NCBI GenBank assembly: GCA_036172245.1
Contig: JAYWIR010000008.1
Coordinates: 2,666,001-2,730,000, forward strand
Reading direction: 5' to 3'
Length of the DNA stretch: 64,000 nucleotides
Source of the DNA: Raillietiella orientalis
Lineage: Eukaryota
How positions within the stretch are numbered: the first letter of the stretch is position 1; every line of letters begins with the position of its first letter. Below the pieces are notes generated by a model. That model searched no databases and was not told the origin of the DNA. It saw nothing but the letters and a program-made list of their open reading frames with translations. Below are positions 8,259-46,429 of the stretch, one piece after another. The position numbers and the translations under genes are program-made.

Positions 8259-9816
8259 GTACGATGATTTCTTTTTGTACGCGAATGCCCTCTGATTTCA
8301 CCTATCGGCTTCGCTTACCTACCCGAGCTGTCAGAGCGGGCGGGGGATGGGCCCAAAGGAAAGTGAACAGAAAAATGAATTTCTTCTGTTGAACGACAGT
8401 TGCATTCGCAAAGCATGGAAACAAGAGAATTACATAGCTTCTTTTTTTAAAAACAAGGAAAAGAGGTTGGAGCGTTCGATAAAAATGCTCGGTGATCAGT
8501 TGTGGCTTCGAAAGAAGGAAAAGAAAAAGAGCCTTTCGAAGGTCTTTTCGAAGGACGCCCGGAAAGCGCCGCAGGCCGCTTGTGGCTCTCGTGCAGAAAA
8601 GTCTTCGGGGGACGCGAACGAGACGGAGGAGCAGTCGTTAAGGATCGGTCACTGTGCGCAGCTGACACGTGCAGAATGCGTACTTTCTTGTTTAGCGTGC
8701 CTTTCGCCTACCCAACGTCATCGGTCGCATGAATTATGGATGCCCTCCCCCGATGCGAGTTTATTGCCGCCGGTCGCTCTCGGATGGAATCCACGCCGAG
8801 CTGGGCGCTCGCTTCCAGGGGTTCCCTGAGGAAGCTCGGAGGTCCTCGTGGGAGGCGAAAGGCCCGAAAGGCGCGAGGACGAGTTTCCAGCCCCCGGCCG
8901 GCACACGGGGAGGTCGCAGACATAAAGTCGTCGTCGCCGTGGCGGCTGACCGGGATCGTGGGAAAGATTCGCCTCGCGTTCCCCCGTCTGCCGGCGCAGG
9001 ACTTTGGGGGGGTTGGGGAGACGACGCCAACGGGAAAGCAAGCAGAGCCGCGGGGCAGATACCCGATTTACCGCCCAGGCGGCCGCCGTCCTAAAACTGC
9101 AGCATCATACCGCAGGCGGTTTGTCGAACCCCTCGACCAGCCACCTCTTTAAGCAGCCTGGACACAGCCGGCTCCCCGGCTATGCCCATATTGAAGCCGA
9201 GCTTAGTGCGGACATCCGATCTACACACAACCGCAACTGAGAGAACCCCTGTCCTCACACCATCCACCGATTCAAACCTCCAAGTGGCTGGATTACAGGA
9301 ACACGCCACTGCTCCCACGCCACCTCGACCGGAAGTCTCCGTGGAGAGTGCGCACGCAAATCGGTTGTGAGCTCCACTGATTGGGAGGCAACGCGGGTGA
9401 AGTTATAAATATGCTCTGATGGTTGCCGAAGAATTCCGAGGGGGATGAAGGATCTGGAGACGTACGGGCTGTCACACGTTCCAAGAATAGTTCTGTGAGG
9501 GACGCTCCGTAGCATGGAAGGTGTTCCGGGTGTATGCGGGTGCGGTGGTGAATCTCAGGTGGAGATCCCTTCCCTCCTTCGAAGGACACGTAGCAAAGGA
9601 GATCTCTTGCCCGCGTTGGAGGCCGTGTGGTTGCAGTCTCCAACGCGAGGACCAACGATGAAGGATTCCCAGGATGAAGCACATTGGACCTCGTAGCAGG
9701 CGAACCTGAGCTATGAGTGCCATCGATGCCTCAGTGCCGAAGACCGAAGGCTCTGGCGCCTGTGGCATTGTAGAAAGAAGAGCAAAAGGAGATTTTCGGC
9801 AGCGCACGCCGTTCTT

Positions 9817-10570
9817 TGCCCGCGTTGGCGGCCGCGTGGCTCGAGGGGTCTCCGCGCATGGCACCGAGCGTCGCGGGTTCGGATCCTGCCCGGGGAAGGA
9901 AGCACTGACGCCGAGAAATGGGGGATGCGCCGTGGGTTTCGATGTCCCCCCCGCAGGGTGACGCTGGCTGGTCTCTTCGGGTGCGGTGGCACTGGTGAAA
10001 GCCTGAAACTCCCGGATGCCCAGTTGACTGGCCAGGATCGGAAGTTGACCCTCCGGGATACTTCCAGAAATCAAGGGTCCTTCCTGTTGTGAAAATATGA
10101 AATCTCCTCCCCCCTCCCTGGGGGAGTGATCCTCTATCTCGTATCATGGGGCTGGTTGCCTCTGCAGAGTGTGAAGACGCGCTGCCTCCTTCCAGGAGCG
10201 CCCTCCAGAGAAAATCTGGAAGCGTCCCTTCGGGATTCTCGTCAAAGGAGGAAACAGGAAGCGAATCCTTTCCAGGGAGTCCCTCCGGAGAAGAAATTCC
10301 AAGAGCGAGTCCTTTCCGGGTTCCTTTAGGAGGAGAAATGAGGAGTTCCTCCCCCTTCCGGGGAGTCCTTTTTTGGAGAGAATAAGGAAGAGGTTCCCTT
10401 CGGGGCTCCCTACCAAGCTTGAGAGGAATAGACTCTTTCCTCCGGAGCCCTCCTGGATTCATAGGGTGGTCTCTTCCCAGGGTGCCTCCTAACTGGAAGA
10501 GTCACACGCACCCTCGGATGAAGTGGATAGAGTCAAAGAGCTTCGCGAACCCCCAGGAGGAACGCTTCTT
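9817..10570 (+). mobile_element. tRNA-headed SINE-like repeat, copy 1 (full length)
   Basis: A-box-like GTGGCTCGAGGGG and B-box GGTTCGGATCC (9876-9886), followed by a body alignable to six other copies that includes the ~40-nt unit array at 10218-10460. Confidence 0.8.
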
Positions 10571-11899
10571 GGAAGACGGGCCGCATGGGATCGCACGTGG
10601 GTCAGGAGTCGGCCGGGTGAACGTTCTCCGTGCCGACCGACCGCCACATGGAGACGCGGTAGTGCGGCGTCCCCGTGCATTCGGCGCGGCAGCGTTGGCG
10701 TATCCAAGAAGACTGTGGGGCTGGTCTCACAGATGCCAGCGCCGGCGGGGAAGGGAAGAAACGGTCCTTCGAGCTCCCGGGGAGGTAGGAGCCTCGGAGA
10801 CCCGCAAGGGAAGCGGCTTGTGATGTCACCGAGGAGCAGGGCCGAAATCGGAGAAGGCCACTTGGAGCCAGCACAATGGTTTCCCATCCTCTCCTCCCGG
10901 CCTTCGAAGAATGTTCCGGAAATATTCGTTTGTTTTTTCTTTCCCCCTCCATGTGGATGTTCATCCTCATGGAGAGATCTAGACAGAGAAATGCAGGTGT
11001 TTTCTTCGTGTGGATGTTCATCCACGTGGAGAGAGAGCAAGGCAGAGGAGAGAAGAGCGAACGCCTCGTCCAGAGGACCGCCGGGACTTGGAGTCCATGC
11101 TCCGAGAAGTATGAGGGGGAGGAAGAAGCTCGACAGGAATGTGGAACGAACTCTTCCTGCATCGGGAGTCCCGTCTGGATGTTCTCTTCTTCCGACAGAT
11201 CGGAGGGACGAGGGGAGGGGAGAGGGGGAGAACCCCAGCGCGCGGGCAAGAGCTGATCACGTAGAGGATTCGCCCGCGCATGCGGGTGGGCCAGCAAAAC
11301 GCAAAGGTAGGTCGTTCCGGCTCCACGAGGCGGGCAGCACTGCTTCGGTCCGTGAAACACCAGGGAGCGCTTCCCAATGGACTCCGTGCGGGTGGAGGGA
11401 GGGAGGGAGGGGGGAGGAGGAGGAGGAAATGCACCTCCTGCTCGGTGGCTACTCGCCCAGCACGGAGGCACTGGGACTCGCGCGGCCTGCTTGCTCGGTG
11501 GGGATTGAAACACCGGAGGGGCACGCGTCGCGTCCCTGCGGCAGAGAAGAATTTTCGCTGCCCATCCGCTGAGATGGTGGCGCACTCAAGCGCGTGTACC
11601 GTGGTTGCGCGAGGAGGAGGAGATGGGGAGAAAGAACCAAGGACGTCCTCTCACCGAAGGGCGGGTGCACCGCAACGACAGCGGGATACGCCTGCCTCTC
11701 CTTTCCTCGTCACTGAGCACGCCCTCCGGCAAAGAACAAATCCTCCGAGGGTTCCCGGAAGCGGGATCCCCGCGAGCACTCCGTTCCTCTCCTCTCGAAG
11801 AGGAGGAAACCGCCCGTCGACGCTCACCCCCACCCCCACGCGTTCCTTCCAAGGGCAGATCGGGAGTGGAGGGAGTCGGCGGGCTAGGAGCAGTGGAGA

Positions 11900-12720
11900 T
11901 GGACCCGGAAGGGCAGTAGCGGCAGGGATAGTCGCCCAGTGCGCCGTTCACTTTGAGGAGCGGCTCGCGAGGCATATGACCCTTCGGCGATCCCTCTGTG
12001 CTTAGGTGACGGGTCAGCAGCGTTCGAAAGAGCCAGTCGAGAGGATCCCCGGAGGATTGGCATGGTGCTGGCATTTCCACTCTTCAGCTTTCGCTCTTTG
12101 CAGGTTGCCACTCCTGCAGAAGGCAGAGCGGACTGCCTTCCCGCGGGAGCCTCAAGTAGACAGGGATTTCTTGTGAAAACCGGCTGATATGACCTCCAGA
12201 GCGTTCCTCCTCCTCCCCAACCTTTTCCGGAATTTTCTGGGTCCGGAGAAGGGCGCGACTCCTCAGACCACTCTTGTCACCCGGAAGCGCTTCCAGGAAG
12301 GAAAGTTTCGGCACTTCGAGGAACCAGGATGCACCTTCCGTGCGCTCGGGGTCTCGGCGCCGCGCGAGCGGAGGGACCGAGGTCTTCCGTTTTCAGCCTC
12401 AGAGCTTCCCGAACCGCAGGCCTCCATCTCCCGGCCCGTCACCGTTGCCCGGGAGTCGAGGAAATTTTTCCACTTCCCGATCCCACGATGAGCGATGGAG
12501 GGAAAGCGCACCTGCAGCAGCCGAGAAGGGATCGGAAGCGCGGGTCTCGCAAGCTTAGAGAGGAATCGCCCAGAACCCGTCCCGAGCTGCTCCGCTTGAC
12601 CTCGGGACAGACGCGAGAGGAGAGGCCTTCCGTGCCCAGGCTGGGCCAAGACCTGGGCACGGAAGGCCTCTCGTTTCCGATCACGTCCGAATTCCAACAG
12701 ACCGCGAGAGGCAGGCGCCT
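11900..12720 (-). mobile_element. Decayed Tx1-like ORF1 (gag-like) fragment
   Basis: Minus-strand remnants KNFLDSRATVTGREME..ENGRPR, EIPVYLRL, GHMPRE and YPCRYCP, resembling an RRM followed by zinc knuckles. Frameshifted. Confidence 0.35.
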
Positions 12721-12753: not shown

Positions 12754-13530
12754 TGCCCGCGTCGGAGGCCGTGATGTGGCCGATGCTGTCTCCGCGCGCG
12801 GCACCGGATGTTGCGGGTTCGGATCCCGCCCGCGGAAGAAAGGATCGACGCCGAGAACGGAGGATGTCTCGTGAGTTCGAGTTCCTCCCGCAAGACGACG
12901 CTGGTTGGCTTGCATTCGGGTGCGGTGGCACTGGCGGAAGCAGCCGGGAACTCCCAGATGCCCCCGGTGACTGCCCTCCGGGATAAGAAGACCCTCTGGG
13001 GTTCTTCCAGGAGCCAAGGAGTCCTTCGTAATTCCCCTCCGGTCGGGAGAATATGGAGCCGCCCTCTGCACAGGGGAGACCCTTCATCTCGTACCATGGG
13101 GCTAGTTGCCTCAACAGAGTGCGAAGAAGCGTGCCGCTCCCTTCCAGGGAAATTGGGAAGCGTCCCTTCGGGGTTCTCTCCAGAGGAGGAAGAAAGAAGG
13201 GGTGACTCCTTTCTAGGGTCCCTCCGAAGAGGAAATTATGGGAACGTTTCTACAAACCGGGGGGTCCCTCCGGAGAGAACTAAGAAGAAAGGGGTTCCTT
13301 CGGGGTTCCCTTTGTAGACAACCAAGATGGAGGGTCTCCTTCGCGGTTCTTTGGCAAGCGTGATGGGAGCGGACCCCTTCCTACAGAGCTCCTTCCTGGA
13401 TCCACAGATTTCTGGATCCTCCGGGCTGACCCCTTCTAACTTGAAGAGTCACACGCACCCTCGGGTAGCGAGGGCAGTAATGCAGAGTTGCGCGAGTCCC
13501 TCCTGAGGAGGCGAGCGGTTCTACAGCACT
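12754..13530 (+). mobile_element. tRNA-headed SINE-like repeat, copy 2 (full length)
   Basis: B-box GGTTCGGATCC at 12816-12826, the same body, and the shared 3' block aacttgaagagtcacacgcaccctcggg...cctgaggaggcg..ggttct. Confidence 0.8.
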
Positions 13531-13589
13531 TGGCCGCTCTTGACGACCGTTGCCAGCCCAGGAGAATCTCCCACCCTGCACACAGGCTA

Positions 13590-14207
13590 ATGCTGGTTGG
13601 CCTTGGTGGCTTCGGGTGTGGCACTGGCGGAAACCGGATGCCCCCGCTGGATGGTCAGGGTTGCAAGTCGACCCCCGGGGTCCTTCCAGGAATCAAAGAT
13701 CCCGTATCCTTCCCTTCGGTTGTGAAAATATGGAGCTGCAGCATCTCGTACCATGGAGCTGGTTGATACCACCCACCTCTATAGAGTGTCAGAAAAGCGC
13801 TGCTCGCTTTGGGGAGCACCCGCCTGAGGAATTCGGAGGCGTCCCTTTATCGGTTCTCTTCAGAGGAGGAGGAAACAGGAAGCGAATCCTTTCCAGGGAG
13901 TCCCTCCGGAGAAGAAATTTCAAGAGCGGATCCTTTCCGGGTTCCTTTAGGAGGAGAAATGAGGAGTTCTTCCCCTTTCCGGGGGGTCCTTTTTTGGAGA
14001 GAATAAGGAAGAGGTTCCCTTCGGAGCTCCCTACCAAGCTTGAGAGGAATAGACTCTTTCCTCCGGAGCCCTTCCTGGATTCCTAGGTTGGTCCCCTCCA
14101 CGAGCACTCTCTATAACTTGAAGAGTTCCACGCACCATTGAGGGTGACGCGGACAGCGTCAAAGAGCTTTGAAGGTCCTTCCTGAGGAGGCGGATGGTTC
14201 TTTAGCG
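13590..14207 (+). mobile_element. SINE-like repeat, copy 3 (headless, tandem to copy 2)
   Basis: Starts at gctggttggcc..ttcgggtgtggcactggcggaa. The unit array at 13866-14082 is nearly identical to 10248-10460. Confidence 0.8.
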
Positions 14208-14413
14208 ACCCCCCCCCCCCCCCCCAAAAAAAAAAAAAACGTCTCGGGTCACCCTGCACGCACATCTTCATGGTCTCCCTCCATCTTTGCGAAGTGGTTC
14301 GCCATTTCTTGCATGTGATTGTTGCAGACTTCTGCTCCTTGAATTTCCCTTTTTCCTTCTGTCCCTTTTTGAAACTCGTTCTCTTTAGATGAAGACGCTC
14401 TTCCTTCGGTATT

Positions 14414-15517
14414 ATGACTGTCGATGGAAATAGGAGCTTTAGAAGATCCAACAGAAGCATTCGCCACGGATCCTCGCGTTCCTCCAGAATCAGCAGGTCC
14501 AACACGAGGAGGAAGATCAAGAACTGCTGCCGCAAAACGGCGGAGTTCATGTGCACGCAGGTCGGTGTCGGCGGCCTCGTGGTCAGCTACGCCATCTTCG
14601 GATCCTTCGTTTTCATGGAGCTGGAGGGTGAGAGGCCCCAGATTTTCGAGGACATTTCCAAGCTGCGCAACCTCACGCTTGAGAGGCTCTGGAACGTCAC
14701 GTACGAAGACAACATCCTCAACCAGAGGCACTGGGCCCGCGTCGTCAACGAGACCGTGATGCTGTACCAGGAGAGGATCGTCCAGGCGATCAAGGAGGGC
14801 TACGACCCCAAGCTGATAGAGCAGGACAGGATCTGGTCGTTCGCCGTGGCCCTGATGTTCTGCCTGTCCATCTTCACCATGATCGGCTACGGAAGGTACG
14901 TCCCCAAGACGGACTGGAGCAAAATAGCGACCATTATCTACGCCCTCTTCGGTATCCCTCTGTTCGTGCTGTACTTGCTCAACATGGGCAAGATCTTGGC
15001 CGGCACGTTCAAGTACTTCTACACCAAGATCTATTTCTGCCAGATAAGGCGCGGTCAGGACGCCAGGGGCCGCTTGGAAAAGCGCCTGGCTAACCACCTC
15101 AAGGAGGCGAACGCAGCGGACTGCTGCAGCTCCGAGGACGTGAATTCCCTCCCGGAAATCATCGTCCCTGCGTCGGCGTGCCTGTGGGTCATGATAGGCT
15201 ACGTCGTTGGGGCAACCATCCTGTTCGCGGAGTGGGAGGACTGGAGCTACCTGGACAGCACCTACTTCTGCGCGACATCCCTGCTGAAGATCGGCTTCGG
15301 GGACTTCGTGCCTGGCGCCACGGGCTACGGCAACAAGACGGAAAGCCAGACGAAGCTGGTCATAAACTTCATTTTCCTGCTGCTGGGCATGGGACTGATC
15401 GCCATGTGCTACAACCTGATGAAGGAGGAAGTGACGATAAAGACCAAGGTCGTGAGCGAATATCTCGAGGAGAACTTCCTGCTCTTTTGCAACAAACTGA
15501 GGTGTAAGCTTCCCTAG
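14414..15517 (+). CDS. Two-pore-domain (K2P, TWK-18-like) potassium channel with an intronless CDS
   Basis: 367-aa ORF with 4 TM segments and two pore loops: WSFAVALMFCLSIFTMIGYGRYVPKT and WSYLDSTYFCATSLLKIGFGDFVPG. GC-rich third codon positions. Confidence 0.95.
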   Translation: MTVDGNRSFRRSNRSIRHGSSRSSRISRSNTRRKIKNCCRKTAEFMCTQVGVGGLVVSYAIFGSFVFMELEGERPQIFEDISKLRNLTLERLWNVTYEDNILNQRHWARVVNETVMLYQERIVQAIKEGYDPKLIEQDRIWSFAVALMFCLSIFTMIGYGRYVPKTDWSKIATIIYALFGIPLFVLYLLNMGKILAGTFKYFYTKIYFCQIRRGQDARGRLEKRLANHLKEANAADCCSSEDVNSLPEIIVPASACLWVMIGYVVGATILFAEWEDWSYLDSTYFCATSLLKIGFGDFVPGATGYGNKTESQTKLVINFIFLLLGMGLIAMCYNLMKEEVTIKTKVVSEYLEENFLLFCNKLRCKLP

Positions 15518-18500
15518 CGAGGAGGAGCGTGGGTGCAAAGAATGAGGATGTTTCCCCTCCCCCTTCAGTTCTCCTCCCTTCCGCCCGCGTCCCACCGGTT
15601 GTGCAATTCCTTCAGCAGCAGCAGCAGCAGCAACAACAACAGAAGGGCCGGAAGACAAAAGCCGCCCGGCTGCCGGAATGAGGCAGCCCTCCTTTCCCAT
15701 GGAACACGGCAACGTTTCTCCCCGTAATCTTGATCGATCTTCTTGTCTCGATCTGAGATTGAAATATCACTCAAGACTTTCTCTGTTTGTTCGTTCGGAA
15801 TCGCACGGCTGGTCATTCTCTCGCTTGTGCATGCTCACGGGCGTGCTCAGCCGTGTCTCGTCACCACTGCTTGCTCGTTTTCCATTTCGCTGTGCCTCAG
15901 GCGACGGAATTTCGCAGCGATTTTATCAACGGGACCGCAGTATGCAGAACACTTTGCTACGTGCCCTGCAGGATACACCTCATTGTGTGACATGTCCTGC
16001 AGGATAAATAACATTTGTCCTGCACCCATATGGTTCCCTGACCGTGTCCAGAGAGGAAGGTTACCTTCCGATCCCTTTTTAAATCACATCCGTCCGCCGA
16101 CTATCTTCCGAATGCGATCCCGCCTGGGAGCCCCTCGAAGTGGGGCGGCTGCGCGACTGCCGCCCGTTGCGGCGGCAACCGGATTCCTCTGGTAGCGAAC
16201 TGCTTTTAGGGAGCCAGGGGGGAACGGGGAATCCTTCAGAAACCCGGGGCGGGCCCGATGACCGTGACCCTTCCTGCTCGGAGGGATCCATCTTCCAGAG
16301 TCCCTGCATCGCGCTGTTCCTGGCTGCCGCGAAGGAGCCACGCCGGCACGGCTGCTGCTCTCGCCGAGGGACGCCTTCCCTTCGCGACCTTCCTGGCGCT
16401 TCGTTTCTCATCGCCCCCGGGACGACCCACGCACCCGGGTCCGTGGCACGCAGCGCCTCGTGGACCCCCGGATGCTTCAGCTCGAGCCAGCCGAGCTCGG
16501 AACGCAGCCGGGCAGGCACCAGTAGGAGCACTGCTCCCTGGAGGCAAGCGAGGTCACCCTGTGACTCCGTCTGGCTTCCGTCTTCCCGATGGGCGCATCT
16601 GGTTCTAGCAAGTCGGATGTGGTCGGGGAGGGGGAGCCATCCCAAGCCCTCTGCATCGGTCGAAGGACGACTCATCCTGAGCGAGACTTCTTCGAGGTGG
16701 TCCAGAGAGGTCTCCTTCATTTCCCGAAACTTCCCGGAGGAAGTCCTCAGCGCGAGCTCCTCTCCTGGCCGGGGGAAGATACGGCCCCTGCTCCTCCCTC
16801 AAGGCAGGAGCTCGCGGCTTTTGCTTGCGCGAGCATGCAGGGTCACGACCTTAGAACGACCATCCCGCTGGAAGGCAACCTTGGAGCGGTGTCTCCAGTG
16901 GGTAATTGCCGGAAACCGACCCGCCGCCCCCAAAATCCTACACTGCCTCCCGAGAGGGACGAACAGTCACTCAGAACAAATGGATGGAGCTCCGCCCACG
17001 AGATCGCCCGGCCTCGGGCTGGGCGCATTGAAAGTCGGTCGCCCCTTCCGCCGAGCGTCATTCCTCCCATCCTTGTCAGAGCGGGGAGGGGAGGAAGGAA
17101 AAAAAAAAGGGGTGCGAACGATCGAAGGGGGAGTTTCCACAACCACCGTCTCTCCCCTCCCCTTCAACTCGCTTTTACGACAAGGCCGGAAGCTTCTCGA
17201 GGCTGCTGCTGGTGCTGCGGGCAACGTCCAGTGCTTCCGTTTGCGTCCTAGGAATGCGCCGCCTCTCCTGTGGCGCTCCCTGCCCGTGGCCTCCCAAAGA
17301 CCTCGGTCTCTCTCCCGCCTACGTCGCCGTCCGTCGCACCGCGGGGCACAGGTCGGCCCTCCTCCGTCTGACTCGCCTCTTCCAGGGCCGCTGCCGGAGA
17401 CGGACGCGGAGGCATCCAGCGGGACCATCTCCTTGCCTTCTCCTGAAGCTCCCTGTCCGGCTTCCGTGCGGCTCGCGAGGTCGGTGGACAACCTCGCGCT
17501 TCCAGCGCGCGTCCCATGGGTGCCGCGGCTCCGATGCCACCGTTCGTCCCACGGGGTGCCTCGAATCCCAGACCTGGTCGTTGCTCCCACGTTTTCCTAG
17601 ATCCCCCCACGGACCCAGGGGTGCCGCGACTCTCGCTCGTACCCCTCTGGTGGCAAAGCGAAGGAACGGTCGTCGCTATCCGTCTCTATTGGTTATGCCA
17701 CCGGACGAGCCACGGGGGCGGACGCCTCCCCGTTCCCTCCCTCCGCTCCAGAGCTCTGGGGCCCGGCCTCGGCTTCCGGCTCGTCGCGGAACAAGCCGCT
17801 TGAAGACTGTCCACTCGCAACGGGTCCCAGGGCCGCGGCGGCGGCCCTCCTGAACCGACGCCTCGTCGACTGAAGCCTCTGGGCGGCGACGCGCCTGCTG
17901 AAGATGCGGCACGGCAGTCCCTCCCGTCTTGCTCGCCTTCCTGGCAGGCGGCGCCTGGCAGACCCGGCAAACGGTGGCCTCATCGACCGTCGAAGAGAGC
18001 TGGAAGGACCCGGAGTTCGACTCCCATTGTGCCGACCACCCATCGGGGGCATCTGGTTTGAACTGCTACCAGTTCTGCACCCGAATAACCAGCGTTCATC
18101 TCGCAGGGGGAGCTCGAACCCACGAAGCACCCTTCTCTCTGCGTCGATTCCTGCTGAGTATTCGAACCCGCGACGTCTCTTGGCATGCCATGTGGAGACT
18201 CCAGCAGCCACATGGCCTCCGACGCGGGCGTGCTCTCGCCTCATTCTTTAGGCGGCGACGGGCGCCATTTTTGGAAAGCATTCGCAAGCAGAAGAGGGTT
18301 AGAGGGTCGGCGGAGCGGCGACGTTTTCCCCAGACCCTCCCCTAAGGTCGGATGACGTTCTGGAAGATTCCTCCCTCTCTCCCTGCACTACCAGAAGAAG
18401 TACCGTCTGTCCCCGGGGATTGGTCGCCGAAGTAGGTGCCGGAACGTGTGGAACGGGCGTCAAAAAAAAAAACCCTGCTCGAAGGGTGCGGAGGAGAGAC

Positions 18501-20699
18501 AGGGCGGAACTTTCCGAGGGGCCTAACCCGCGAAGGGACGGTGCGGATGCCCGCGTGGGTCTATCTTCCGCCTTCCCTTTCCGGCGGTCCCTCCCGTCTT
18601 CCTCGCCTTCCGAGAGGACGACCGGCGCCGTTCCTGGCGGGCGGCGCCCGACATACCCCCCAAACGCTGACCTCATAGAACGCCGAAGAGAGGGGGAACC
18701 TTGCCTGCGCTCTTGAGCATATTTTCACCCGTCTTACCAGCACTCCAAAGCCTCCACGCTCTACAGCTTGCGGATGCTCTGCCGCCCTCCCCCTCCTTCT
18801 CATGAAGACATGGAAGGGTGCCTGGGTCAACAGTTGACCTCCGCGACTCGGAGCCTTATCGACCGATGCGACCCTCTTCTGTCAAACGAACACCCCGAAG
18901 AAACCTAGGCCGGAGGTGTTCGCCGGGAAGTTCTCACAGCCCTCCCCAATTCATTAGGCGGGCGAGCCGGAGCTGTTGCTATTTATAGATTGGCATGGAT
19001 GAAGATTTATTTGTCTCCCACGTGGGTTGTTCTATTCCGGTATTGTTTAGCAACTCTTTTGGGTACTGCAGCTCCATTTTCCCCTCTTTTGGAACCCTCT
19101 CTCGTCTCGTCGCCTGCCGTCATCGCCGCCACGCATCCATCGCGCGCGGGATCCGTGGTGGTTCCCACGCTGCTTTCCCCAACCCCCCGAGATCTATTCT
19201 TAGGCCCTGGTTCGAATCCTGACCTCTTGTGCCCGCGATCACGTGGAGGTGTTCCGTCAGTCCGGCGCCTGCAGTGTGCTCGCCCTGCCCCGTGCCAGCG
19301 GGTGCTGCTCCTCCTCCTCTGCTGCCGGCAGTTCGGTTCCGAGCGTCCCCGGCCCTGCGCGCGAAGGCGGAGGAGAGACTCACAAGGAAGGGAAGGGAGG
19401 GATGTGTGCCCTTCCCGCGAGCGCGCGGAGGCTGCGAAGAGGAAGCAGCAGCGAACTGGCGCGCCCCTGTCGGCTTTGCGCTGGGACGCGGAACAGGGCG
19501 AGAAGCGGCTCTCTGGAGAGCGGGAGTCGCTTCCGGAATTCAGCAGGCTTGCCGGGTTCCACAAGCCCCCCTACTCTTCCGACTGGAAACGGCAAGGTTC
19601 AGGGACTCGCGGGAAGTGCTGCGGAGGTTCCTGAACGACTTCTCCTCCGGAGCCTTGCGGGCGCACCCCTTCTGCTCCCTCTGGGAAGGATCGGGTCTTT
19701 GAGCTTCCGGGAGAGCATTCCGTTCTGGGGACGGCGGGATCGGAGTGGAGCTGCAGGCGGAAAGAAATTAAGCGGAAGCTGCGCAACGCCCACACGGGTC
19801 TTTCGCTCCCTGCAGTCGGGAAGGGCATTCCCGCATCTCGGCCGCGAAGAGAGGCTCTTTGGCATTCCGCAAGCCTTCGTTCCCGCCACGGGCTCACGTC
19901 TCCAGACGCTTCGGCGCCGAAGAACCTTTCGATCTCGGCAGCGCAGCTTCGAGTCTTCGAACTCGTGAGCGGATCCGTTTCAGGGATGTGAGCCAGGGCT
20001 CAGTCCGGGTCGGATGGGAAGCTCCGTTCTACCGACCCCATCGCGAGGTTTCTCTCGAGAGACTTCCTGGCGACAGAGTGTTATGTTCGCGGGAAGGTGG
20101 CGAGCGTCCCTGGCGCACCGCCACCGCCGCACATCCGTCCGTTTTCGGCAGCTCCCCAAGCTGCTACATGGAGCAGGGTGCCATCAAAGGCAGGGGTCCA
20201 ATGTTTCCGGCGGCTGAGGGCCACTCTGAGTCCTCTGAATGAAGAGTAGAGGAATTCCGAACCAAACCCTAAAAGCCTTTTTACACTCTCGAAAATACAT
20301 GTTGGGAGGGTTTCGCATTCGTGACCCACGACGACTGACTTGGCTGTGTGAGACTCTGCTGACCGCGAGTGGTGAGGTCCCCCTGCTCGGGTGTCTCTGG
20401 ACGGATTGCATCCGGAGGAACAAATGGGTAGGGATGCGTGCAGGAAAGACGACGGAGAAGGACAAAGGGGAGGAAGAAAAAAATGGACTCGACGGGACGT
20501 TTGATTTTCGTGAAGATTTTGGAATCGATCAGTCACTGGATTCTCGTCCCTTTCGTCACTTAACGGAAAGACTAAGCCTCTCCCATTTGACAAAGACACG
20601 GAAGAGGGAAGCTCGCGGCAGGGAGGTCCGCAGACGGCTTTCCAGGAGGTAACGAGGATGGTTCCATTTGAGGGTAGTCGAAAGGAGGCTAAAGAAGCT

Positions 20700-22150
20700 T
20701 GGAGGCAAGAAGACGCTTTCGAGGCGGAGACTGAACGACGCCACTGTTGGAGTGGTTATAAGAATCGGATGGACAACTCTGTCTCTAGTCATGGTCCTCA
20801 CTTGGACTGAGTCCACGGTGACATGGTTTCCGATCCATGTTTGATACGGGGGAGGACTTCCTGATTCAAGAGATATCTTTGGGTATTTGGCCGAAGATGC
20901 TGAGTCTCCGATACGGAAACAGGTTTGCATGGATGACGGGAGAGCACATAGACTGGTCTCGGTATACTCTGGCGACATAGGTCATCTGCTTGATATCAAT
21001 TTCTGCTTGAATCCGGTGTTCTTGCATGGCTCAAAATTGGAACGATAAACGACCCAGGCAAATGACATGAATGCCATCGGTGCAAGAGGAAGGTACTGCG
21101 TAGCTTCCTGGCTCAGGAAATGAAGGGAATGAATACTGGATGCGAGCGCCTCTGTTCTTATCACAATACTGGAACTTGCTTCATGGCTGGTGTCGACGGT
21201 GATGCTTGGAAAATCGAAACGCCAGTTCTCGATGACCGACCTTTCGACCTGGGTCTTGGCGTTTCGTGCTTTCAGAAACACTTCCCCCTTCCCGCCGCCT
21301 CTTGCCTGTGCATAACCCATCTTCCCAGGGAACGGAAAACCACTTGCTCTTGCTCAGTACGTGACGTACCCCGAGATTTTCTTGTTCTCTGGTACCCACG
21401 AGAGAGCTCCCGAGGCAGCCGCCCCCTCCGTAAACTGAGACAGCATAAGGGCCCTGTGGGAATGCGGGTTTGCAGGGTTCACATAAATGCTGGCTGACCC
21501 CATTTTCCGGATTGCCTGCTCCAAGAGATTCTAAGATACGATCGTGCAGCAACCAAGGCAGCAGTCACGATGCTCTGATCGCCACATCATGAAGTTTGCT
21601 CGTTTATTTGCATTCCGATAACTCGAAACGCAATCATCGCAAAGCAATCGCTGTTACACCCGGAAATGGCTTCTTCAGGCGGAACCAGCCATACGTGGAA
21701 CCGTCGCAGGTCAGAAAATCGACTGGCCAGAAAATTAAACACGATATTAACACATGCCATTTCCAAGAGCATACGATACGACTGAAACGAAGCGACCTCG
21801 AAATCATGGCAAACAGTCATCATCAAGCAATACTCAGGAACAAAAAACCGTGACTTTCGGCAGTGGGGTTTGGTTGCTGCGAGTCTCTGCAATAAATAAG
21901 GCCTTCCTCGCGAGCGGCGGTACATTTTCAGAAGAGTGACACCAGCTCCGTAATGGGGCTTCGTTAATACTAAGGATCCAAAGGAGGAGCTGAATCTTAA
22001 ACGCCCTTCGGATTCTGCACGGCACGTTGGACCACAGAGCACACGAAATGAGGAATCGAAAAACGATTGCACATCCGTCCATCCGCCCCCGCCGACGGAC
22101 GTGGACAGGCAGGAAAAGGCGTCAGTTCTGCTCACAATACTTTCACGTGA
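20700..22150 (-). mobile_element. Decayed LINE reverse transcriptase/thumb
   Basis: Collinear remnants VCHDFEVASFQ..IVFNFLAS, ENLGV and IQAEIDIKQMTYVARV, with many stops and frameshifts. Confidence 0.4.
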
Positions 22151-22538
22151 AATATGGCCACTCTGTGTAATCGAAATGGAATTCAATTCCCACTCTGGAA
22201 GATCTGAGGTGACTCGTTCTCAGGTCCGGAAGTTGCGCTTTGCAGCAAATTGATTTCCATCAGTTGCGTACATATCTACATTGTGTTGTTTGTTTTCACG
22301 ATTTCTTAATCTGTGCCCTAAACACCGCTTGGAAACTGCTTATCTAAGGAAAGAATTAAAAATAATCGCACGTGTCCAACGACGTTGCGCAAGTAATTTT
22401 TTTTTTTTTTTTAGGAAAAATACTTCAATTATGCATAGAAAATAATTTATCCATTTATCCTCTTCTATAAAAATCACAATGTACAAAAACACCAAACATG
22501 GCAAAACATTTGGCACTTGAATTTAAACTGCATACGCA

Positions 22539-24347
22539 TCAAATCACTGTTTCCGAATTACTGGCACTTAATTTGGTATATCTTTTTGGAGCATTCACTG
22601 TATTTCGAGATCTGGATATAGTCACTACAGGACTATGGGGATAACTTAAAAAATCATTAGAAACTGGCGCAGTTATAACATATGGCCTGAATCCATGAAA
22701 ATTTGAATAACCTGAAAGGGCACTTTTACTACGAACACTTGAATCAGAATGTTCAGCAAATACAGAATTTGGTCTGTAATCATGGAAAGTAGCATTGGCA
22801 TGATTTGGGAAATGCCTCAACGAATCTTTTGGATTAAATGACGGCATCTGATAAGAGTCAAAGGATGTTGAACTGTCAAGATCACGTTCCATCAAGTGCA
22901 TAATGGGATTGACATAGCTTTGTCGAGATTGCGTGCTATTGCGCTTACTTCCATATGACCTGGTGGAAGTTCGCGACAAACTCCTCTGCTTTGGACGATG
23001 TGCCATCACATGTCTAGTTCCACCAGTGCTTGCTTTCTTTGGAGGGATAGTATCATTATCATGTGGAACACTAAGTTCAATAGAGTACAAGGAAGTATCA
23101 CAACTTTTGGGACCAGCTAAAACAGAAAAAAATTGTGTAGTCCCAAGGTCTGCATCCCTTTTTTCCCTCACAAAATGCAGGGTCATTTCTTGAAATAAAA
23201 AGTAAATAACCACAACACAGTACATGTAAACTGGGATAATTATGATAAGCAAGTTTGCAACAAAGAGTTAAAAGAAAATTCGAGAGGGAATAATAATTCT
23301 GGATGTGGACTAGACATACCTGCTCTCACATGAGAATCATAATACCACCAGAACAGAAAGGCAAGAAGAGAGGAACAAACCTAGTAATTGATTTGACATT
23401 ACACATTGTACATCTCTTCAAGCTGTTACTTACACTAAGGCCACACTGGCTTCCAGCATGTGCAACCTCTACAACAGTGTAGCTTACAACACATTCATCA
23501 ACTCTAATAGGTTTCAAAGGATGGCTAACGTCTACATTGGTGATGTTCATAGAGTACACAGGATTACACCCAGGACCATTTATTAACCACCAAGAAAAGG
23601 ATCCTGTACCCAGTGCCAAGAAGTCTTGTTCCTTTAATCAAAAGATGATATGCATGGTGAGGATACAAGCTGCTACCAGATAACTTGCCTGGCTCAAAAC
23701 CCCAACCTCAAGGTACCAGCAAAGAATAAAAGCATTCCAAACAATCCACAGAATATTCCAAATGAAGAACTTGAAAAAAAAAAAGAAAACATTTAGCATA
23801 TCAAAACAAGCAACAAATTAAATGAAAAGCTGCATTTGCATCTGCAAATGAAATACTTACTGCTAATATGTAACTTTGCTTACAATACACAACTCCAAAA
23901 AGTCCAAGAATTAAAAAAACGAGATTAAAAAAATTTCCCAGGATAGGTAACCACATATATCCTAGGAAATCGAATACTTGTTTCTCTGCTGTGATGAGCT
24001 GCAAATATTTAATTGTGGATTTTATTAATCATATTTACATCGAAGACGAAACTTAAATTTTATACTTAAATCACATGACAGTTAATTTCTAATCAGCACT
24101 AACGCATATACTAATAATTGAAACTACTTTTCTAGCAATGAAAATGGTTAAAATGATCAATAAAACATGAAATCTGACTCATTGGTAGATACTTAAAAAC
24201 TTTACAAACAGGGACAAATATAAAAATTCACTACAGTCCAATTTATATACAGATACTAGTAATGAATGGGAATAAGTATCTCACCAGCTGAACAACGATA
24301 ACCAAGGCATGTAAGACTCTGATTTGCTTGAATGTTAAACAAGCCAT
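22539..24347 (-). CDS. NKAIN: Na+/K+-ATPase beta-subunit-interacting protein
   Basis: Exons 24347-24285, 23998-23861, 23769-23689, 23631-23434, 23380-23320, 23116-22539, all in phase. Motifs [54 protein letters not shown] and LYSIELS. The last acceptor could instead be near 23188. Confidence 0.92.
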
Positions 24348-25349
24348 ACATTATCATCCAAAGTTGTTTTTGTTTTCAAAAATCTTAGCAATTCTAAGAT
24401 GTAAGAAATCAAAGAGAAAACGACACCTCAATGAATAGGCATCGTCCACTAATGTCCGGGCAACTGCACTTGCTGTGTTGACATTCCTCGAGGAACTCTC
24501 CTGACTCCCGAAAATGATTAATTTCCAGCACAAGTGAACGCATGTATTTTAGCACATGAACTCCCCACGAGGAACCCACATGATCCAGTCAGTTCCATGG
24601 CACCCGATCATTAAAAAACGGTCATCCGCTCTACATTGCCTGGTATCCAAACAACGCATTCAAAACCCCTCTGCGGGAACACAAAGGTGGTGATCGCACA
24701 TGCACAGTTTTGCCAAGGTTTCGAAAACGAACCATAATTTAGATACGCCTATGTGAGTAGTAAAATCACACATCCGATCCCACACATACAAAAAAACAAC
24801 GTATTGAACCTGATACGTTCATTTCGTGCTGCACTACATGTCCGTGATTAAATACAAGAGCATTACTTTCTGCTTATTCCAACGGAAAAGGCACCTATTG
24901 AATATTGCGTAACCCAACAAAGTCTTCCACGGAAATTGAGGCGCCAGGCTTTGAGGAATTTGATATCGGGGATGCTACTATCATGCACGTGATGCCAGCG
25001 GATCCGATGGCTACTGAAATACTACGGATGAAAAATGGTTAAAATTGAAGCTTGCTGGCAACTGAGACAAAACACTGCATTCTGAGATTGTTCTCGGTCC
25101 GTCAACATGGAATTCATGCTTCGGTGAGCCACAAATCAAGCAACTGACTTTAGCATTATGCAACTTGTTTTTTTTTTTCACTCTCAAGTGCAATAACTTA
25201 TGCAAGCCAGATACGTAAGTATGTCGATCAGCAAAAGCTTAACGGAATGATAGAAAATTTGAGTCGTTTTCACACTTCATTTTGTACTCTGTACTTTTTG
25301 TGTACTTCAAGGTGCTCAAGATTGCGCATCGGTTGGAAGTCGATCCTTC

Positions 25350-26600
25350 TATCAGGTTATTACGGACCAACAGTTCTCAGACTCAACAACGAGTATGAGT
25401 GATGTCCGTTTCAGTAGTCTCAGTCTGACATCCACAAAGGGCTAAACACTTCATCTAGAGTGCCCAGGCTAGAAGGAAATGGCTGCTTTCACGTTCGATC
25501 TCTTCGATTCGAGGTAACAATCTCTCTACCGCAGTCTGTACACGATCATATGCCAGCATCTTGTGTCAGCACACCGAATATGGAGGTCCTATTCCAGAGT
25601 TTTCCGTTTTGCTATTGTATCCCATACGGACGAACCGAGAACATTCTTGCTGATCGCCACCATGGCCATTACCAAGAATTTCAAGGTGTGGTAGCTTCCA
25701 TAGGTTTTCTTTTGAAGAAAAATGGTTCGAACGCATTCTACCAGAATGCATCTACAAAGAGGACACCGGGGTGAGGGGGCATGCGTGCGTTCCTTGGACA
25801 ACATGATTCACAGAACTGTTGTTTTTCCTTCCACACCAGCAGGTGTTGCTGCATATGGAAAGTGTTTTTGCGCCTATATTGCATTAGTCCATACATTCTA
25901 TACCACTGTGTAAATACTTTGCTTGTGAAGCAAAGACGCTTTTTGCTAGATGGTGTCGGTCCGATGACCCAGCATGCAACAGTAAAAGGCGAAAGAGATC
26001 ACAAGCAATCTCGTGTTTCCAAAAGGGAATTCAGCTCTTAAACTTTCCCACGAAATCATTCCACATCCGCTTTCCTCATTAAAAGCAAACGAAGAGTTTT
26101 GCTTTGCATAACACTGTGAGCTACTCGAGATGTACGCCGAGTTCCCATCACATACTGCTGCATGAGAACAGTCGTGCGTGGGGCTGCGCGAAGACGAACC
26201 TTCTTTGGGTAGCCGTTCCGGCATTAACCATACACATATATCTTTATTTGCTTTTTCCGCAGCACATGACCCGCCTCTCATACGTTTGCTCATTCTCAAC
26301 GCTAGAGTCACCCTTCTTTTCCTCCACGGTATTCAAGTTGGATGGAAGAAAGTGGGATCGTGCTTGATCAGCATCCACAGAAATAACAAGGATGTATCCG
26401 TTTATGCTGCAAAGAGACAATTATTTAAGGAAATCTCGGCATGGTTCAACTTCATCCTCCTACCTACTCCCCGATTCCATGAAGAATCCTAAGCAAATTA
26501 ATTATTTCTACCAAAGAATGCAAAGATTTTTCCGTAATGCTATCGGAACTGAAGTTTCCTTTGGACTATTCTGTTTCTATCACAGAAAAGCGGAGGATCT
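25350..26600 (-). mobile_element. Possible very old LINE RT remnant
   Basis: VRTIFLQKKTYGSYHTL resembles the DxxKAFDxVxH region. Support is weak. Confidence 0.25.
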
Positions 26601-28865
26601 AAAATGGGTAGATATGGAGGCAGTGCAAAGCGTCACAGTGCTCGATTAGCTCGTAGCATTCCAACTTGGAACGAACTTAGGACTCCGACGATTGGACTGC
26701 GCCGTTGCAGCATTCTAATTGTCTCTTCGAACACAGGATTGCTTTACCATCTGCATGCTTTTACTAGAATACATTCGAGATCTTGTTTTCCTCCGTATTT
26801 CCTGTTCTTAGAAATATGACTCGATTTTTCAGGCAGCTCTGTTGGCTAGCGATGTTGCTAACAGTTGACAGAACGATCTTCTTGTCTAAGTGTTTCAAAG
26901 TTTTATCATCGCTGAGAGAACTTTTGATGACTCGTTTCCTTCAAGTTTCTTTCTTTCTTCTTTTTCTTCAGTTTTCTGGAAGAAGTTTGATTTTCCATGC
27001 TTCATTCACTTTAGTTCTTTTCTTGTTTCTTTCCACTGGTCGCGTGTTTAGCAGCCTCAAGACAAATGAGCAAGGTTCAAGGAAGAGGACTCTTCAGTCG
27101 TTCTAATTTTGAATTCGAGTTGTCAAGCTGTGACCAGCTTCATTATGACCGTTCACGTTCGCAGTCATGCTGCAGGACAACTAATGCATCAAGGCGTACG
27201 TGCGAGCAAGCAGCATTGAGGTGCCGACATATCAAACAGCGTTTACACACTTGTTTGAATAGTGTTTCAGGTCCGTCCACACTGGGACCCGAAAACCACT
27301 CATGGAGAATTGAAAAAGGAGAAACGTACTACGAAGGTAGAGACTAGCAAGTGGGAACACCGACGTCTTCAGATGCTGCGTGATGGAGAGGGACTGCACC
27401 TAAAACACGAGCTCGGGAACTCTTTGAGTGGCCTTTTTTTCTTTAGAAACTTTCCTTACTCATAGCACACGTCTGCCTGATTTGTGGCTCCCATGGTGCG
27501 TGCCTGCAATAAAGACGAATGATCCTATGCCCTCTGTCTCCATGAAAGCAATCGCCCTTATGATCTTGATGTTTCGACCGAATTCCCCACGAGTTCACCT
27601 AAGACTAGACCACGAGTTCTCAAGAGCTTCACAGCAGTCAGAGGCAATAAGTTGCATTCCAGTCGCCGCAGGCTTCACGAACCATCGCAAATATTGTGGT
27701 CGCTGGTTTCCGTGCAAGGTCACTAACTTCACGGAACATTTGTCTCCTCGTGTCGTTTCCGTATTGTAGCCATGGTGATGGATGGTGAGAACGCAGAAAG
27801 TTTCGGAGCCCGCTGACGCCTGGTCAAGTGCTCGTTCGCTGCTGCCACGTTCTCGACGCATCCCAAGACTGTCTGGAGGACGAGAAAATTGCTACCTGAT
27901 TTCATTTAACACTAATTACATGTCGCATTCATTACGTATAACAGATGTGCTATCTACTGACTGACTCATAAGTCCTTAGGATGCGAGTCCTTAGGAGTCA
28001 CTTTGTTGTGGACAGCTTTCTATGAAGATTTGCATTCTGAACAAAGATGAAGGCTAGCTGCCTGTGGAGACCTAAATCCTTAAATTGAAAAATGAATGGT
28101 CTCTTCAACTGGAAACAACTTATGACTCCTATTTGGAAACAGATTATGGCGGTTGTTTCCAAATAGTTCAAAAGGCATTGTAAAAGTTACAAATAAACCT
28201 CTTAGGGAACTGAAGGAAAAGACGATGTACAGCTTGATGAAAACTGCTCAAAAAAGAATCTCAAATGTCAGAAGAGAGCCAAACACCGTGGGTCATGCAG
28301 CAGGATACTGTCTGCATGTGATGTTGATGGATCATAGGTCCAGCATGCATCTTATTTTTGTGATTGATTTATCAATTGTTCAGAGAGAGACAGCAGAGAG
28401 AGACAGCAAAGAGCTCATGCCGGAAAGTGGTGAAAGAGAAATCATGGCGTGATTGAGGTCTTTTTCTTCAAGGGTTCATTTGTTTCTTCACTCGAAAGAG
28501 CCGAGTTTTCCTTAGAGAGCCTTTTGCAAAATTTCCCTATTCGACTGCTGGGAAAAATCTTGAGAATTTGCGGAGAAGATGTGTGAAGTAGAACTTTTGA
28601 AGATTTGAGCATTCACATATAAATATGTCGATGGCCGTAAGATGAACTTCGTTTTGGGACAAAAGTTGTCATATAAGATATCCATCCTTTCATTCATTGT
28701 ACTTGTTTTGGTTGTTGGCAAGCATTCATAAACATGCTGGGATCGGAATTAGATTATGTAATGCTAATCTTTTTATGCAGTCATTTATTATTACAAGTTT
28801 ATGCAACTTGTTTTTTGTGCAGTTAGATTGAATATGGGTCGCTATTATTTGAAGATCCTTTATTG

Positions 28866-28901
28866 TAATTAACATCATCGATGCATCGATGATGTTAATT
28901 A
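28866..28901. repeat. Perfect 36-bp palindrome
   Basis: taattaacatcatcgatg|catcgatgatgttaatta is its own reverse complement. Confidence 0.95.
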
Positions 28902-30426
28902 ACAAATTGCAGCTTTATTACACATTTGAGGCATTGTATTAAATATACTCATAAAAGCAACTGTCAGGATCATGTATAATAGTTTCTATTGCTATTGACT
29001 GAGTCTACCACATGAGGACCTCATTAAATTTTCAGTTTCTGTTATGTTAGCCATTATGTGGCTGAAGTTAATTCTCAAAACAAAGTAAGGTTTATGAAAG
29101 GAACGAAAAGAAGAAACTTTTGATTTGGAAATTAGCCTTCAATACTGAAAAATAAATGTCATTTCTGTGCAGTCATGAGTAAAAATTGCAAGCTGCAAAC
29201 ACAAGAATTCTTGATGCAATGCAGATTATTCATGATGATTTTCTGCTTTACAATGATAAAAGATAAAAGGTAGCTTAAATAACAGGAAAACAAAAAAACC
29301 AAATGCACACACAGTGTTTGGTCAATAAATGCTTTCCTTTTGTATTTGATTCTGGATGAATTCATGCATGCAGCTCAGTGTTGTTCAGTGGGAAATGACA
29401 TACTTGTTGAGTCACTGCTAATAACAAGATACAGGCAGTGTTAATTCTTAATGAAACTTCAGTGTCTCAAAGTTTTTGTTTGAACAGGGATGAGGTGATC
29501 ATGTAAGCAAATATTTAGTAATATGCACTGGAACTCTATGTTAACTACCTGTTTGCCTTTATTGAGATATTGTAATCTCATTATGTTTCCTGTGGAAAAG
29601 AGTCAGTTGTGCATGACTTATGGAATTATTGCTAGATACGATTTCCACGATCTGAAATTATCATCATCGAATCAGTCAGTCAAGTATCCGAGAGTGCATT
29701 ATTCTAGTACAAGTGGGAACAACTTAGTTGCATGTACAACACTTTCGGTTTCGTACAATGCTTTGTTTGGATTGTGTACATGTTTGGCAGCGGTGGATGC
29801 TTGTGCTGTGGTCTTGCCGGGTCCAGCAGAATGGACAGTTGCAAACCGGGGAGGATCTGTGATCTCCCAAGGGCTTGGGAAGATTTGATGGCTCAAAATC
29901 ATTGGTAATTTTTTGTTTTTGCGACGTGCTCGCTTGGCGGGCGCCCTTTAAAGTTAAAATCACGAAAATCCGAGACGCTTCGTTTATCTTGTAATGGAAG
30001 ACCTATACGTCCATTGTAGCTTTTCTTTTACCCACGCATCTTCACAGCAGAATGTATGTGTTCCCCCCCCTTCAATAAAGCGACGACTTGAGTTTCCTCG
30101 GTGAGTTTCAAGTTGTTTTCACGTGGATTTGCATTCGATACTTCCGCTTAACACGTGTCTTTGTGATTTGAAAGAAGTGGGCCGGAGGTCGTTGGCGTGA
30201 GGAGCTGGCGTGGAAGTCCCCCCCCCCTCCCAAGTTGGTTGGTTGGTGATAGAGTTTAGCCGTATCTGTATGACGAGCAAGCAGTTTGAATGTATGCAAA
30301 TCTTAGGTGGAGAATAAAATTGCTGGTTTAAGTAATACTCTTTTTTTTTCTCTCTCTCTCTCTCCCGACAGCACAGTGTTAGGACTGAAAATTCGTTTTG
30401 TTTTGTTTTGTTTATAACAAAAAAAT

Positions 30427-31143
30427 ATGGAAAGCATTTATGCTATTCCCTATAAGGTTTTACAGATACCAAATCTGAAACTAAAGAAGCCAGCATGGCT
30501 GCAAAAGCCATCAGCAATGACAGTTTTTTCCTTTTTGTTAGCGTCTTATTTTTTGGTAACCGGTGGTAAGTAGTACAGTTATGAGTCAGTTTTGTTATCT
30601 ATAGAATGTAGCATTTGTTGTAGATTTCAGTTTTTCTTGCAAGATACGTACTGTCAAATAGACTAAAGTACGCCTGTGGCAAGAACGAAAGTAAATTAAT
30701 TGTGTTGTTGTGCTTGTAGGTGTAATATATGACATAATAGTGGAACCCCCTAGCATTGGTTCAGAAACTGATGAATTTGGCCATTCGAAACCTGTGAGTC
30801 GTACATAAATCAGTTTATAGAACAAGTAAGATGTGCAGGGCTTATTGTTTTCTATTTAGGTGGCCTTTATGACATACAGAATTAACGGCCAGTATATAAT
30901 GGAAGGTTTGGCTGCAAGTTTTTTATTTACTCTAGGAGGTTTAGGCTTCATTATTATGGATCAGAGTACTCAGCGAGCTGTCCCTAAACTTAACAGGATG
31001 CTGCTAATTGGAACAGCTTTTGTTTGTATTCTGGTTTCCTTCATTGCTTGCTGGGTTTTTATGAGGATCAAACTACCGTGAGTGAAGCCCTTATAATAAT
31101 TTTCTGCTACTGGTTTATGTTTAGAGGATATCTTATATCATAA
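30427..31143 (+). CDS. OSTC: Oligosaccharyltransferase complex subunit OSTC/DC2
   Basis: Exons 30427-30565, 30720-30793, 30860-31077, 31125-31143 give [77 protein letters not shown]. Confidence 0.97.
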
Positions 31144-31172
31144 GAAATTAAGAAGTGCATTGGCATTCCCCA

Positions 31173-31178
31173 AATAAA
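31173..31178 (+). promoter_or_regulatory. OSTC polyadenylation signal
   Basis: AATAAA 30 nt after the stop, followed by GT/T-rich sequence. Confidence 0.65.
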
Positions 31179-42250: not shown

Positions 42251-42469
42251 CTGCGAGGTGGCCTCACCTGCCAGAAGAGGTCATCAGTGAGATCACCATC
42301 ATACACTGCCTCTTCTAGGAATAAAAGGTACGAATGAAACCAAGGACCCCTGTCCCTATTCTCCCGTCTTTTTTTATTCATTTCTTGCCTCCTCCCTCCA
42401 TTCCCTTCTTTTTGAGAAGTCTGCCTGCCAATGGGCTTTTTTTTTCTTCTTCCTCTTATGGCATCTCTT

Positions 42470-42950
42470 GTTTCTTCTCCGGAGGAAACCCTCAAGGGAA
42501 CCGCTCCTTGTTACTACTCTGAAGAGAACCCCGAAGGGACGCTTCTCCATTTCTCAGAAGGACGCTCCACGTAGGGAGAGGCATGCTTCTCTGCAGTCTG
42601 GAGAGGTACCAGCTCCATGCTACGAACGGAGGGTCTCTCCCGAGGGGGAAGGGACGGTTCCTTTGCACAGCCAGAGGGGAACCCCGGAGGGAACCGGACT
42701 CCTTGATTCTGATTCCTGGAAGGACCCCGGAGGGTCGACTCACATTGTCCCGGCCATTCATCGGGGGCATCCGGTTTTAACCGCTACCGGTGCCGCATCC
42801 GAATGAATGGAGGCCAACCAGAGTCATCTTGAGGGAAAAACTCGAATCTACAACGCGCTCCCCGTTCTCGGCGTCGACCTTTCCCGGGCGGGATTCGAAC
42901 CCGCAACTCCTGGTGCCGTACGCGGAGACAGCAGCCAAGTGGAGCAAAGT
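42470..42950 (-). mobile_element. tRNA-headed SINE-like repeat, copy 4 (3'-truncated)
   Basis: Perfect B-box GGTTCGAATCC on the minus strand (42901-42891), followed by the family body up to array unit 2. Confidence 0.8.
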
Positions 42951-44739: not shown

Positions 44740-45050
44740 TATAAAGGAAGGGTGAGAGAAGAAAGGCGCGGGAGCGTGAAGCCGCTCCATGCCTCGAGGC
44801 GACCTCTGAGCCTGGGGAGTGGTGTTTTCATGTTGTCCAGGCGGAGCCATCTCGAGGCGGTCTTCAGGAAAACCACGTCAAGTGGATGGCGTCCTGCCAT
44901 TTCAGTCTCTTCTTCCCGCTTTCCAGACCCCCCATGATCTCGCGAAGGCAGGAGGGAACGCGGCCGATGGCTGCAGTGCAGCACGCGCGAAGAGGTGTCT
45001 GAAACTGTCCCTGGGATCGCCCTCCGGCATTCCCAGGGTCGCCTTCTCTT
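44740..45050 (-). mobile_element. LINE family A, C-terminal fragment
   Basis: GRHPLDVVFLKTASRWLRLDNMKT matches GRDVIHWAQIFPKTASKWPHLGDIRT. Confidence 0.65.
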
Positions 45051-46410: not shown

Positions 46411-46429
46411 CCCCGGCCCAGTTGAAGGT

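Follow-up and report, generated by a model that had tools for sequence, protein, structure and literature searches.

The 64-kb window, by which we mean the whole stretch of DNA analysed here, contains nine copies and fragments of one repeat family, lying on both strands and 65-83% identical. We regard it as likely that this is an old, non-autonomous, LINE-dependent family of tRNA-related, SINE-type retroposons whose body is an internal minisatellite. The copies have one architecture and a consistent pattern of truncation, and one of them combines an A tail with a target-site duplication. The family accounts for ~5.4 kb (~8%) of the window, and its copies sit in two clusters, at 9.6-18.2 kb and 42.4-51.2 kb. 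In an all-against-all self-BLAST of the window, this family supplies 18 of the 30 pairs, the lowest E-value being 1e-119. A BLAST search of positions 9781-10640 against the window returned matches at all seven places where the first-pass annotation had reported a copy and, additionally, at 18106-18229 on the minus strand. Two members absent from that annotation, at 18000-18232 (-) and 9607-9650 (+), complete the catalog, and a more permissive search widened the seventh copy (c7) to ~47030-47600.

We number the copies c0 to c8 in order along the window. Copy c1 (9817-10577, +) is full-length, with a T-arm at 9873-9889, the unit array at 10218-10466 and the tail at 10490-10577; an A tail and a target-site duplication were both looked for at this copy and neither was found. 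Copy c2 (12754-13540, +), likewise full-length, has a T-arm with a perfect 5-bp stem at 12813-12829, units from 13156 and a tail from 13437. In c8 (50345-51181, +), also full-length, a decayed T-arm from 50390 is followed by units from 50731 and a tail from 51005, the element itself running to ~51100 and an A-rich 3' extension reaching ~51181. The 5'-truncated copy c3 (13585-14239, +), whose first base lies inside the linker, has units from 13835 and a tail from 14114, and c6 (46118-46413, -), again 5'-truncated, retains units 5-6 and the tail and continues into an A-rich 3' extension of ~100 nt that is also present in c8. Copy c5 (42437-42950, -) comprises the head (T-arm at 42888-42904), the linker and units 1-2 only, with homology extending to 42465, while c4 (18000-18232, -) is a 3'-truncated copy of the head and first ~230 nt with a T-arm-like stretch from 18157; c4 and c5 form one subfamily. 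Copy c7 (47030-47600, +) is decayed and almost full, lacking units 3-4 (86 nt). Finally, c0 (9607-9650, +), recognized in the alignment of heads, is an isolated 44-nt piece that corresponds to the first ~40 nt of the head.

An alignment of eight copies is colinear and bears out the layout of head, linker, units and tail that had been described for the family. The head spans ~85 nt and the linker ~320 nt, and the six-unit array is followed by a tail of ~90-110 nt that begins at a TAACTTGAAGAGTC-type motif and stops near GGTTCTTCAGC. Full-length copies measure 761-787 nt and the majority consensus 730 nt. Identity is 58-76% in the head, 52-63% in the linker, 59-88% in the units and 62-74% in the tail. 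The tail had been singled out as specially conserved, but at these values it fares no better than the rest of the element, and on the alignment no segment looks selectively preserved, all of them decaying alike at 52-88% identity. Over a 206-nt tract, c1 (10246-10451) and c3 (13867-14072), which lie 3.6 kb apart, are 97% identical against 56-64% for the remainder; this tract looks like gene conversion between neighboring copies. A metagenome scan with an 18-nt conserved motif of the tail returned 11 loci, and because all 11 agree over the motif alone (18-20 nt; the longest BLAST alignment at these loci is 31 nt at 84%) we take them to be chance matches.

The head contains a 17-nt T-arm with a B box, GCGGG TTCGRAT CCCGC, which can be traced in six heads: c2 and c5 keep it unaltered, c1 departs from it by a single mismatch, and in c4, c7 and c8 it has decayed. 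An approximate A box, TGGCTCGAGGGG, starts ~39 nt upstream of the T-arm/B box in c1, and three to four copies have in common a 5' end directly before the tRNA-like part. The earlier claim of a tRNA-like head with A and B boxes therefore stands for the T-arm and B box, which are clear, but not for a whole tRNA: ARAGORN at default thresholds finds no tRNA in the window, and between 9500 and 14400 the Rfam matches with E-values of 10 or less include no tRNA family. Lowering the ARAGORN thresholds to 85% brings 13 matches in 128 kb (both strands), two of them at corresponding positions of the c1 and c2 heads; these relaxed cloverleaves are unlike between copies, and their acceptor and D arms are poor. 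The majority-consensus head is called at the 90% threshold, at which the window yields three matches, and it outscores each single copy, with predicted acceptor and D arms that are still poor. That the consensus is more tRNA-like than the single copies is expected of a decayed tRNA-derived head. When two heads were compared with Rfam on their own, they matched only the T-arm modules of YrlA and tmRNA (tRNA clan) and M23. Based on these features of the sequence, we consider a tRNA origin of the head probable. The sense strand of the majority consensus nowhere has four or more T in succession; about one such run would be expected by chance, and this absence is weakly informative.

The description of the body as a series of ~40-nt units is supported by autocorrelation. 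Averaged over the four complete bodies, the signal is strongest at lag 42, where it reaches 0.359 (mean 0.249, sd 0.037), and the next lags are 85, 43, 86, 127 and 128. Cutting the alignment at the c1 unit boundaries gave 31 unit instances of 35-48 nt, all of which fit one pattern of a purine block, a TCCCTTCGGG-type core, a pyrimidine block and a purine-rich spacer. The body thus has the head-to-tail degenerate units, the constant 42-43-nt period and the harmonics (85 and 127) of an internal minisatellite. None of the 25 Tandem Repeats Finder rows overlaps any copy, indicating that the units are very degenerate. The copies with whole bodies, c1, c2, c3 and c8, each have six of six units, so the proposal that unit number varies between copies does not hold for them; it does hold for c7, from which units 3 and 4 are missing across an 86-nt gap, and for c5, which ends after unit 2. 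With six units in each of the four whole bodies, the array was therefore present in the master element, and the number of units has been altered only rarely since.

The full signature of retroposition is seen in one copy only. Homology in c3 extends to 14208 and is followed on the plus strand by C17 (14209-14225) and A14 (14226-14239), and the copy lies between the members of a direct repeat of 13 nt, which differ at one position. The 5' member, CACCCTGCACACA (13572-13584, +), abuts the first homologous base, and the 3' member (14250-14262, +) lies 10 nt past the A run. A match of equal size occurred in 134 of 5,000 random placements with the same geometry; the repeat is supportive when taken alone and stronger given its position. 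The search for target-site duplications that had been suggested for this family thus succeeded at c3 but produced none that was convincing at c1, c2, c5 or c8, which is unsurprising for copies that are 30-40% diverged. A 13-mer at c6 was also considered as a duplication and set aside, as its members lie 67 and 81 nt from the ends of the copy and within repeats of a second family (family B, described below). A-rich runs come after c5, c6 and c8, and at c5 this is an A9 run (42437-42445 in plus-strand coordinates) 20 nt beyond the end of homology. Together with c3, these runs provide the A-rich or simple-repeat tail and the target-site duplication by which retroposition is recognized. In addition, c6 is 5'-truncated yet retains its 3' end, the upstream flanks of the copies are unrelated (42% mean column identity), and we found no conserved sequence upstream of the head. 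Copies c6 and c8 have in common ~100 nt beyond the element as well as an adjoining family B repeat, and as a result at least that pair may stem from segmental duplication.

Open reading frames (ORFs) that overlap the copies give no Pfam family match, in a scan that covered all 57 ORFs of at least 200 aa and 150 of the 194 ORFs of 110-199 aa in the window. A 256-aa ORF across c1 found no homolog in a protein search. We agree on this basis that the family has no conserved ORF. Among the scanned ORFs of the window there is also no reverse-transcriptase or endonuclease domain, and thus no partner LINE. We rejected a reading of the units as coding repeats, given their period of 42-43 nt, their lengths of 35-48 nt, the lack of a common frame and the lack of a Pfam match. 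A reading of the element as an LTR was rejected because copies are truncated at the 5' end and one has poly(A) and a 13-nt duplication; as a candidate LTR primer-binding site, the T-arm in reverse is, from our reading of the sequence, not preceded by TGG. The dispersal over both strands, the unrelated flanks, the 5' truncations, the poly(A) and 13-nt duplication of c3, the T-arm head and the lack of a conserved ORF all agree with the suggestion that the family is a retroposon.

The same suggestion held that the units are the hairpins of a multi-hairpin RNA, and here our results differ. Two UUCG hairpins that the first-pass annotation had quoted do form in the minimum-energy fold, but their stability is not beyond chance (z = -0.05 and -0.87, folding z-scores being relative to dinucleotide-preserving shuffles), and CTTCGG is present in 8 of the 31 units. 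The same comparison gives z = 0.01 for the body of c1 (0.91 for its opposite strand), 0.43 for that of c2 and -0.34 for that of c8. With 20 shuffles for each full-length copy, c1 and c2 score -0.40 and -1.37, and ten single units or hairpins range from -0.87 to +1.94. What speaks for structure, besides the two quoted hairpins, is the alignment of four bodies, for which RNAalifold predicts 75 pairs, 16 of them changed on both sides, more than in column-letter shuffles (0 of 500) or in slid controls (2-4), at a consensus energy of -58.1 compared with -38.5 +/- 4.5 for mononucleotide column shuffles. As this structure had been picked by RNAalifold on that very alignment, we re-predicted structures on 150 dinucleotide-preserving column shuffles; 7 of them did as well in folding as the real alignment (z = -1.79) and 27 reached as many double changes, in what is, with four to five sequences, a weak test. 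The reverse complement of the bodies has 15 pairs with double changes, and purine blocks opposite pyrimidine blocks stay paired through transitions. Covariation across copies appears marginal on this evidence. The covariation check that had been proposed for the unit alignment yields no consensus pair in the 31 units, the tail alignment folds at -7.6 kcal/mol with no compensated pair, and at the Rfam gathering score there is no match on the element, the only one in the window being Metazoa_SRP at 9035-9317. With z-scores of -1.37 to +1.94 against shuffles and units devoid of a consensus pair, the multi-hairpin RNA essentially fails the test that the first-pass annotation had set for it; on covariation, this number of sequences does not allow a firm negative. 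Thus, despite the two quoted hairpins, the double-changed pairs and the consensus energy, a structured Pol III RNA whose repeated UUCG hairpins act as putative multivalent protein-binding or processing sites is exceedingly improbable: bodies, full copies and ten units fold like their shuffles, re-predicted shuffles and the reverse complement come close to the real alignment, neither the units nor the tail has compensated consensus pairs, and identity decays alike in all regions (52-88%). We reject the units as selected RNA hairpins in favor of neutral decay, which explains them most simply. Almost as improbable is a Pol III retroposon of unusual length (~750 nt) in which six 42-nt units of conserved order form a putative protein or small-RNA platform through the TCCCTTCGGG-core motif and not through hairpins. 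If true, the family would have its own function and would be an invertebrate counterpart of composite retroposons that bear a VNTR.

Other readings accept the repeat family and question either its promoter or its mobility. The points against a SINE are that the head passes no full tRNA model, that the length exceeds the SINEBase range, that a single target-site duplication was found and that the copies are clustered. Some of these points would suit a retroposon not transcribed by Pol III, which could be a Pol II composite similar to SVA or, alternatively, the UTR or an internally deleted form of some longer non-LTR element with a T-arm fragment picked up from a tRNA. A length above the published SINE range and a head that fits no full tRNA model are consistent with either form, 5' truncation and an A tail are typical of LINE-type products generally, and the VNTR-like array with its two-unit deletion in c7 recalls SVA. 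We nevertheless judge this explanation unlikely, as three to four copies have one 5' end directly before the tRNA-like part, the B box is accompanied by an approximate A box ~39 nt upstream, the majority consensus is without a T4 terminator and a coding remnant was not found in any copy. A further explanation dispenses with transposition and sees a local repeat of low copy number that segmental duplication and gene conversion have multiplied, the minisatellite being incidental. The confinement of every copy to 9.6-18.2 kb or 42.4-51.2 kb, the ~100-nt 3' flank and adjacent family B repeat common to c6 and c8, and the 206-nt tract at 97% in c1 and c3 (elsewhere 56-64%) are what it would predict. 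It does not accommodate the target-site duplication and C17 A14 tail of c3, the unrelated flanks of most copies, the occurrence of both orientations or the truncated copies with a common 3' end, and we consider it very unlikely.

We therefore return to the SINE-type retroposon with a minisatellite body, for which we propose the following origin. The master element would have measured ~730-790 nt and consisted of a tRNA-related head, a ~320-nt linker, six ~42-nt units, a ~90-110-nt tail and an A-rich run; of the tRNA-related head, the T-arm/B box and the approximate A box would be what survives. RNA of the element was probably made by RNA polymerase III, a putative assignment that follows from the predicted internal promoter, and would have been converted to DNA through target-primed reverse transcription by the machinery of a putative partner LINE. 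Such a process would leave A tails, target-site duplications and 5'-truncated copies. The units would most simply be slippage products that arose in the master copy, were inherited colinearly by its daughters and then underwent neutral decay.

Several other features lie near these copies. A full-length Rfam match to Metazoa_SRP (7SL) RNA at 9035-9317 on the minus strand (76.1 bits, gathering score 70) is ~290 nt from the head fragment c0, and represents either a pseudogene or a genuine gene whose lineage is divergent. An intron-less 374-aa ORF at 14393-15514 (+), which begins ~130 nt after the 3' duplication of c3, encodes a K2P (TASK/sup-9-like) two-pore potassium channel with the Pfam domain Ion_trans_2. 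It has 612 relatives, the best at 52% identity, the named ones among the 120 listed are all arthropod, and its Atlas neighbors are arthropod clusters; it may be a retrogene or a divergent paralog. Because the repeat family makes up ~8% of the window and lies beside the 7SL RNA and K2P genes, its copies should be masked and named as repeats and not as RNA genes. A C-terminal exon of SCAI was identified by Pfam at 59517-60287 (-), and comparison of this exon with longer proteins gave no match. From these genes the host is a metazoan and probably arthropod-like, and no close relative turned up in the collections compared.

The window also holds repeats of other kinds. Family B is interspersed (45190-46098, -; 51760-52656, +; 40472-41060, -; and 44829-45041), at least 900 nt long, 69-77% identical and without a Pfam domain, and it follows c6 and c8; from this arrangement, that pair of copies may belong to an old segmental duplication in inverted orientation. 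A separate inverted duplication of 1,069 nt is 99% identical between 36361-37429 and 48511-49579, 11 kb apart, and Pfam recognizes nothing in the ORFs over it; it represents either a segmental duplication of recent date or a mobile element that is still young. Near-perfect palindromes occur at three places, 12620-12672, 28866-28901 and 55315-55355, and are 36-54 nt long. The first of these, just upstream of c2, gives only weak matches to microRNA precursors, the best scoring 26.5 bits where the gathering score is 70. Outside the repeat family, T-arm/B-box motifs are present at 52960-52995 (+) and 19209-19219 (+), with 4 matches against 0.8 expected. At ~52966-52990 the sequence is similar to the family head in its T-arm and 3' side, and it may be a further remnant of tRNA origin. 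Lastly, an AT-rich island spans 22000-32000 (G+C 0.37-0.45), most of the window having a G+C content of 0.55-0.68.

Compared with known retroposons, the family behaves as a tRNA-derived SINE would. SINEBase defines a SINE by its body, its tail and a head that originates from a Pol III RNA, and the 175 families that it lists span 75-662 nt without the tail (PMC3531059). Like tRNA-derived SINEs, the present family is non-coding, carries in its head a T-arm/B box along with an approximate A box, is dispersed on both strands and has one target-site duplication. Unlike them, it is ~730-790 nt long (761-787 nt in full-length copies) where SINEBase gives 75-662 nt (PMC3531059), and its head passes no full tRNA model. 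The same source describes CHRS as a "quasi-oligomer" in which a degenerate ~20-nt motif is repeated in tandem more than ten times (PMC3531059). Going by that description, the body of CHRS/CHR-2 and the body found here are alike in being a degenerate short tandem motif of variable repeat number (two units fewer in c7), and with CHRS as precedent, bodies of degenerate internal repeats are already a known kind among SINEs (PMC3531059). If a genome-wide consensus confirms the tRNA head, the family would stand at or above the upper length of cataloged SINEs and would be a further case of a SINE body that arose by internal tandem duplication. As such it is of modest concern to transposon specialists and opens no new question.

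The final comparison is with SVA, a composite non-autonomous retroposon of hominids that has a GC-rich VNTR, a poly(A) tail and target-site duplications and is frequently 5'-truncated. SVA is transcribed by Pol II, has no tRNA-like head and is built of Alu-like and HERV-K pieces. The present family differs from it in having a tRNA-like head and in lacking the Alu-like and HERV-K parts. The two are alike in their composite make-up, in an internal VNTR with units tens of bases long, and in the poly(A), target-site duplication and 5' truncation of their copies.
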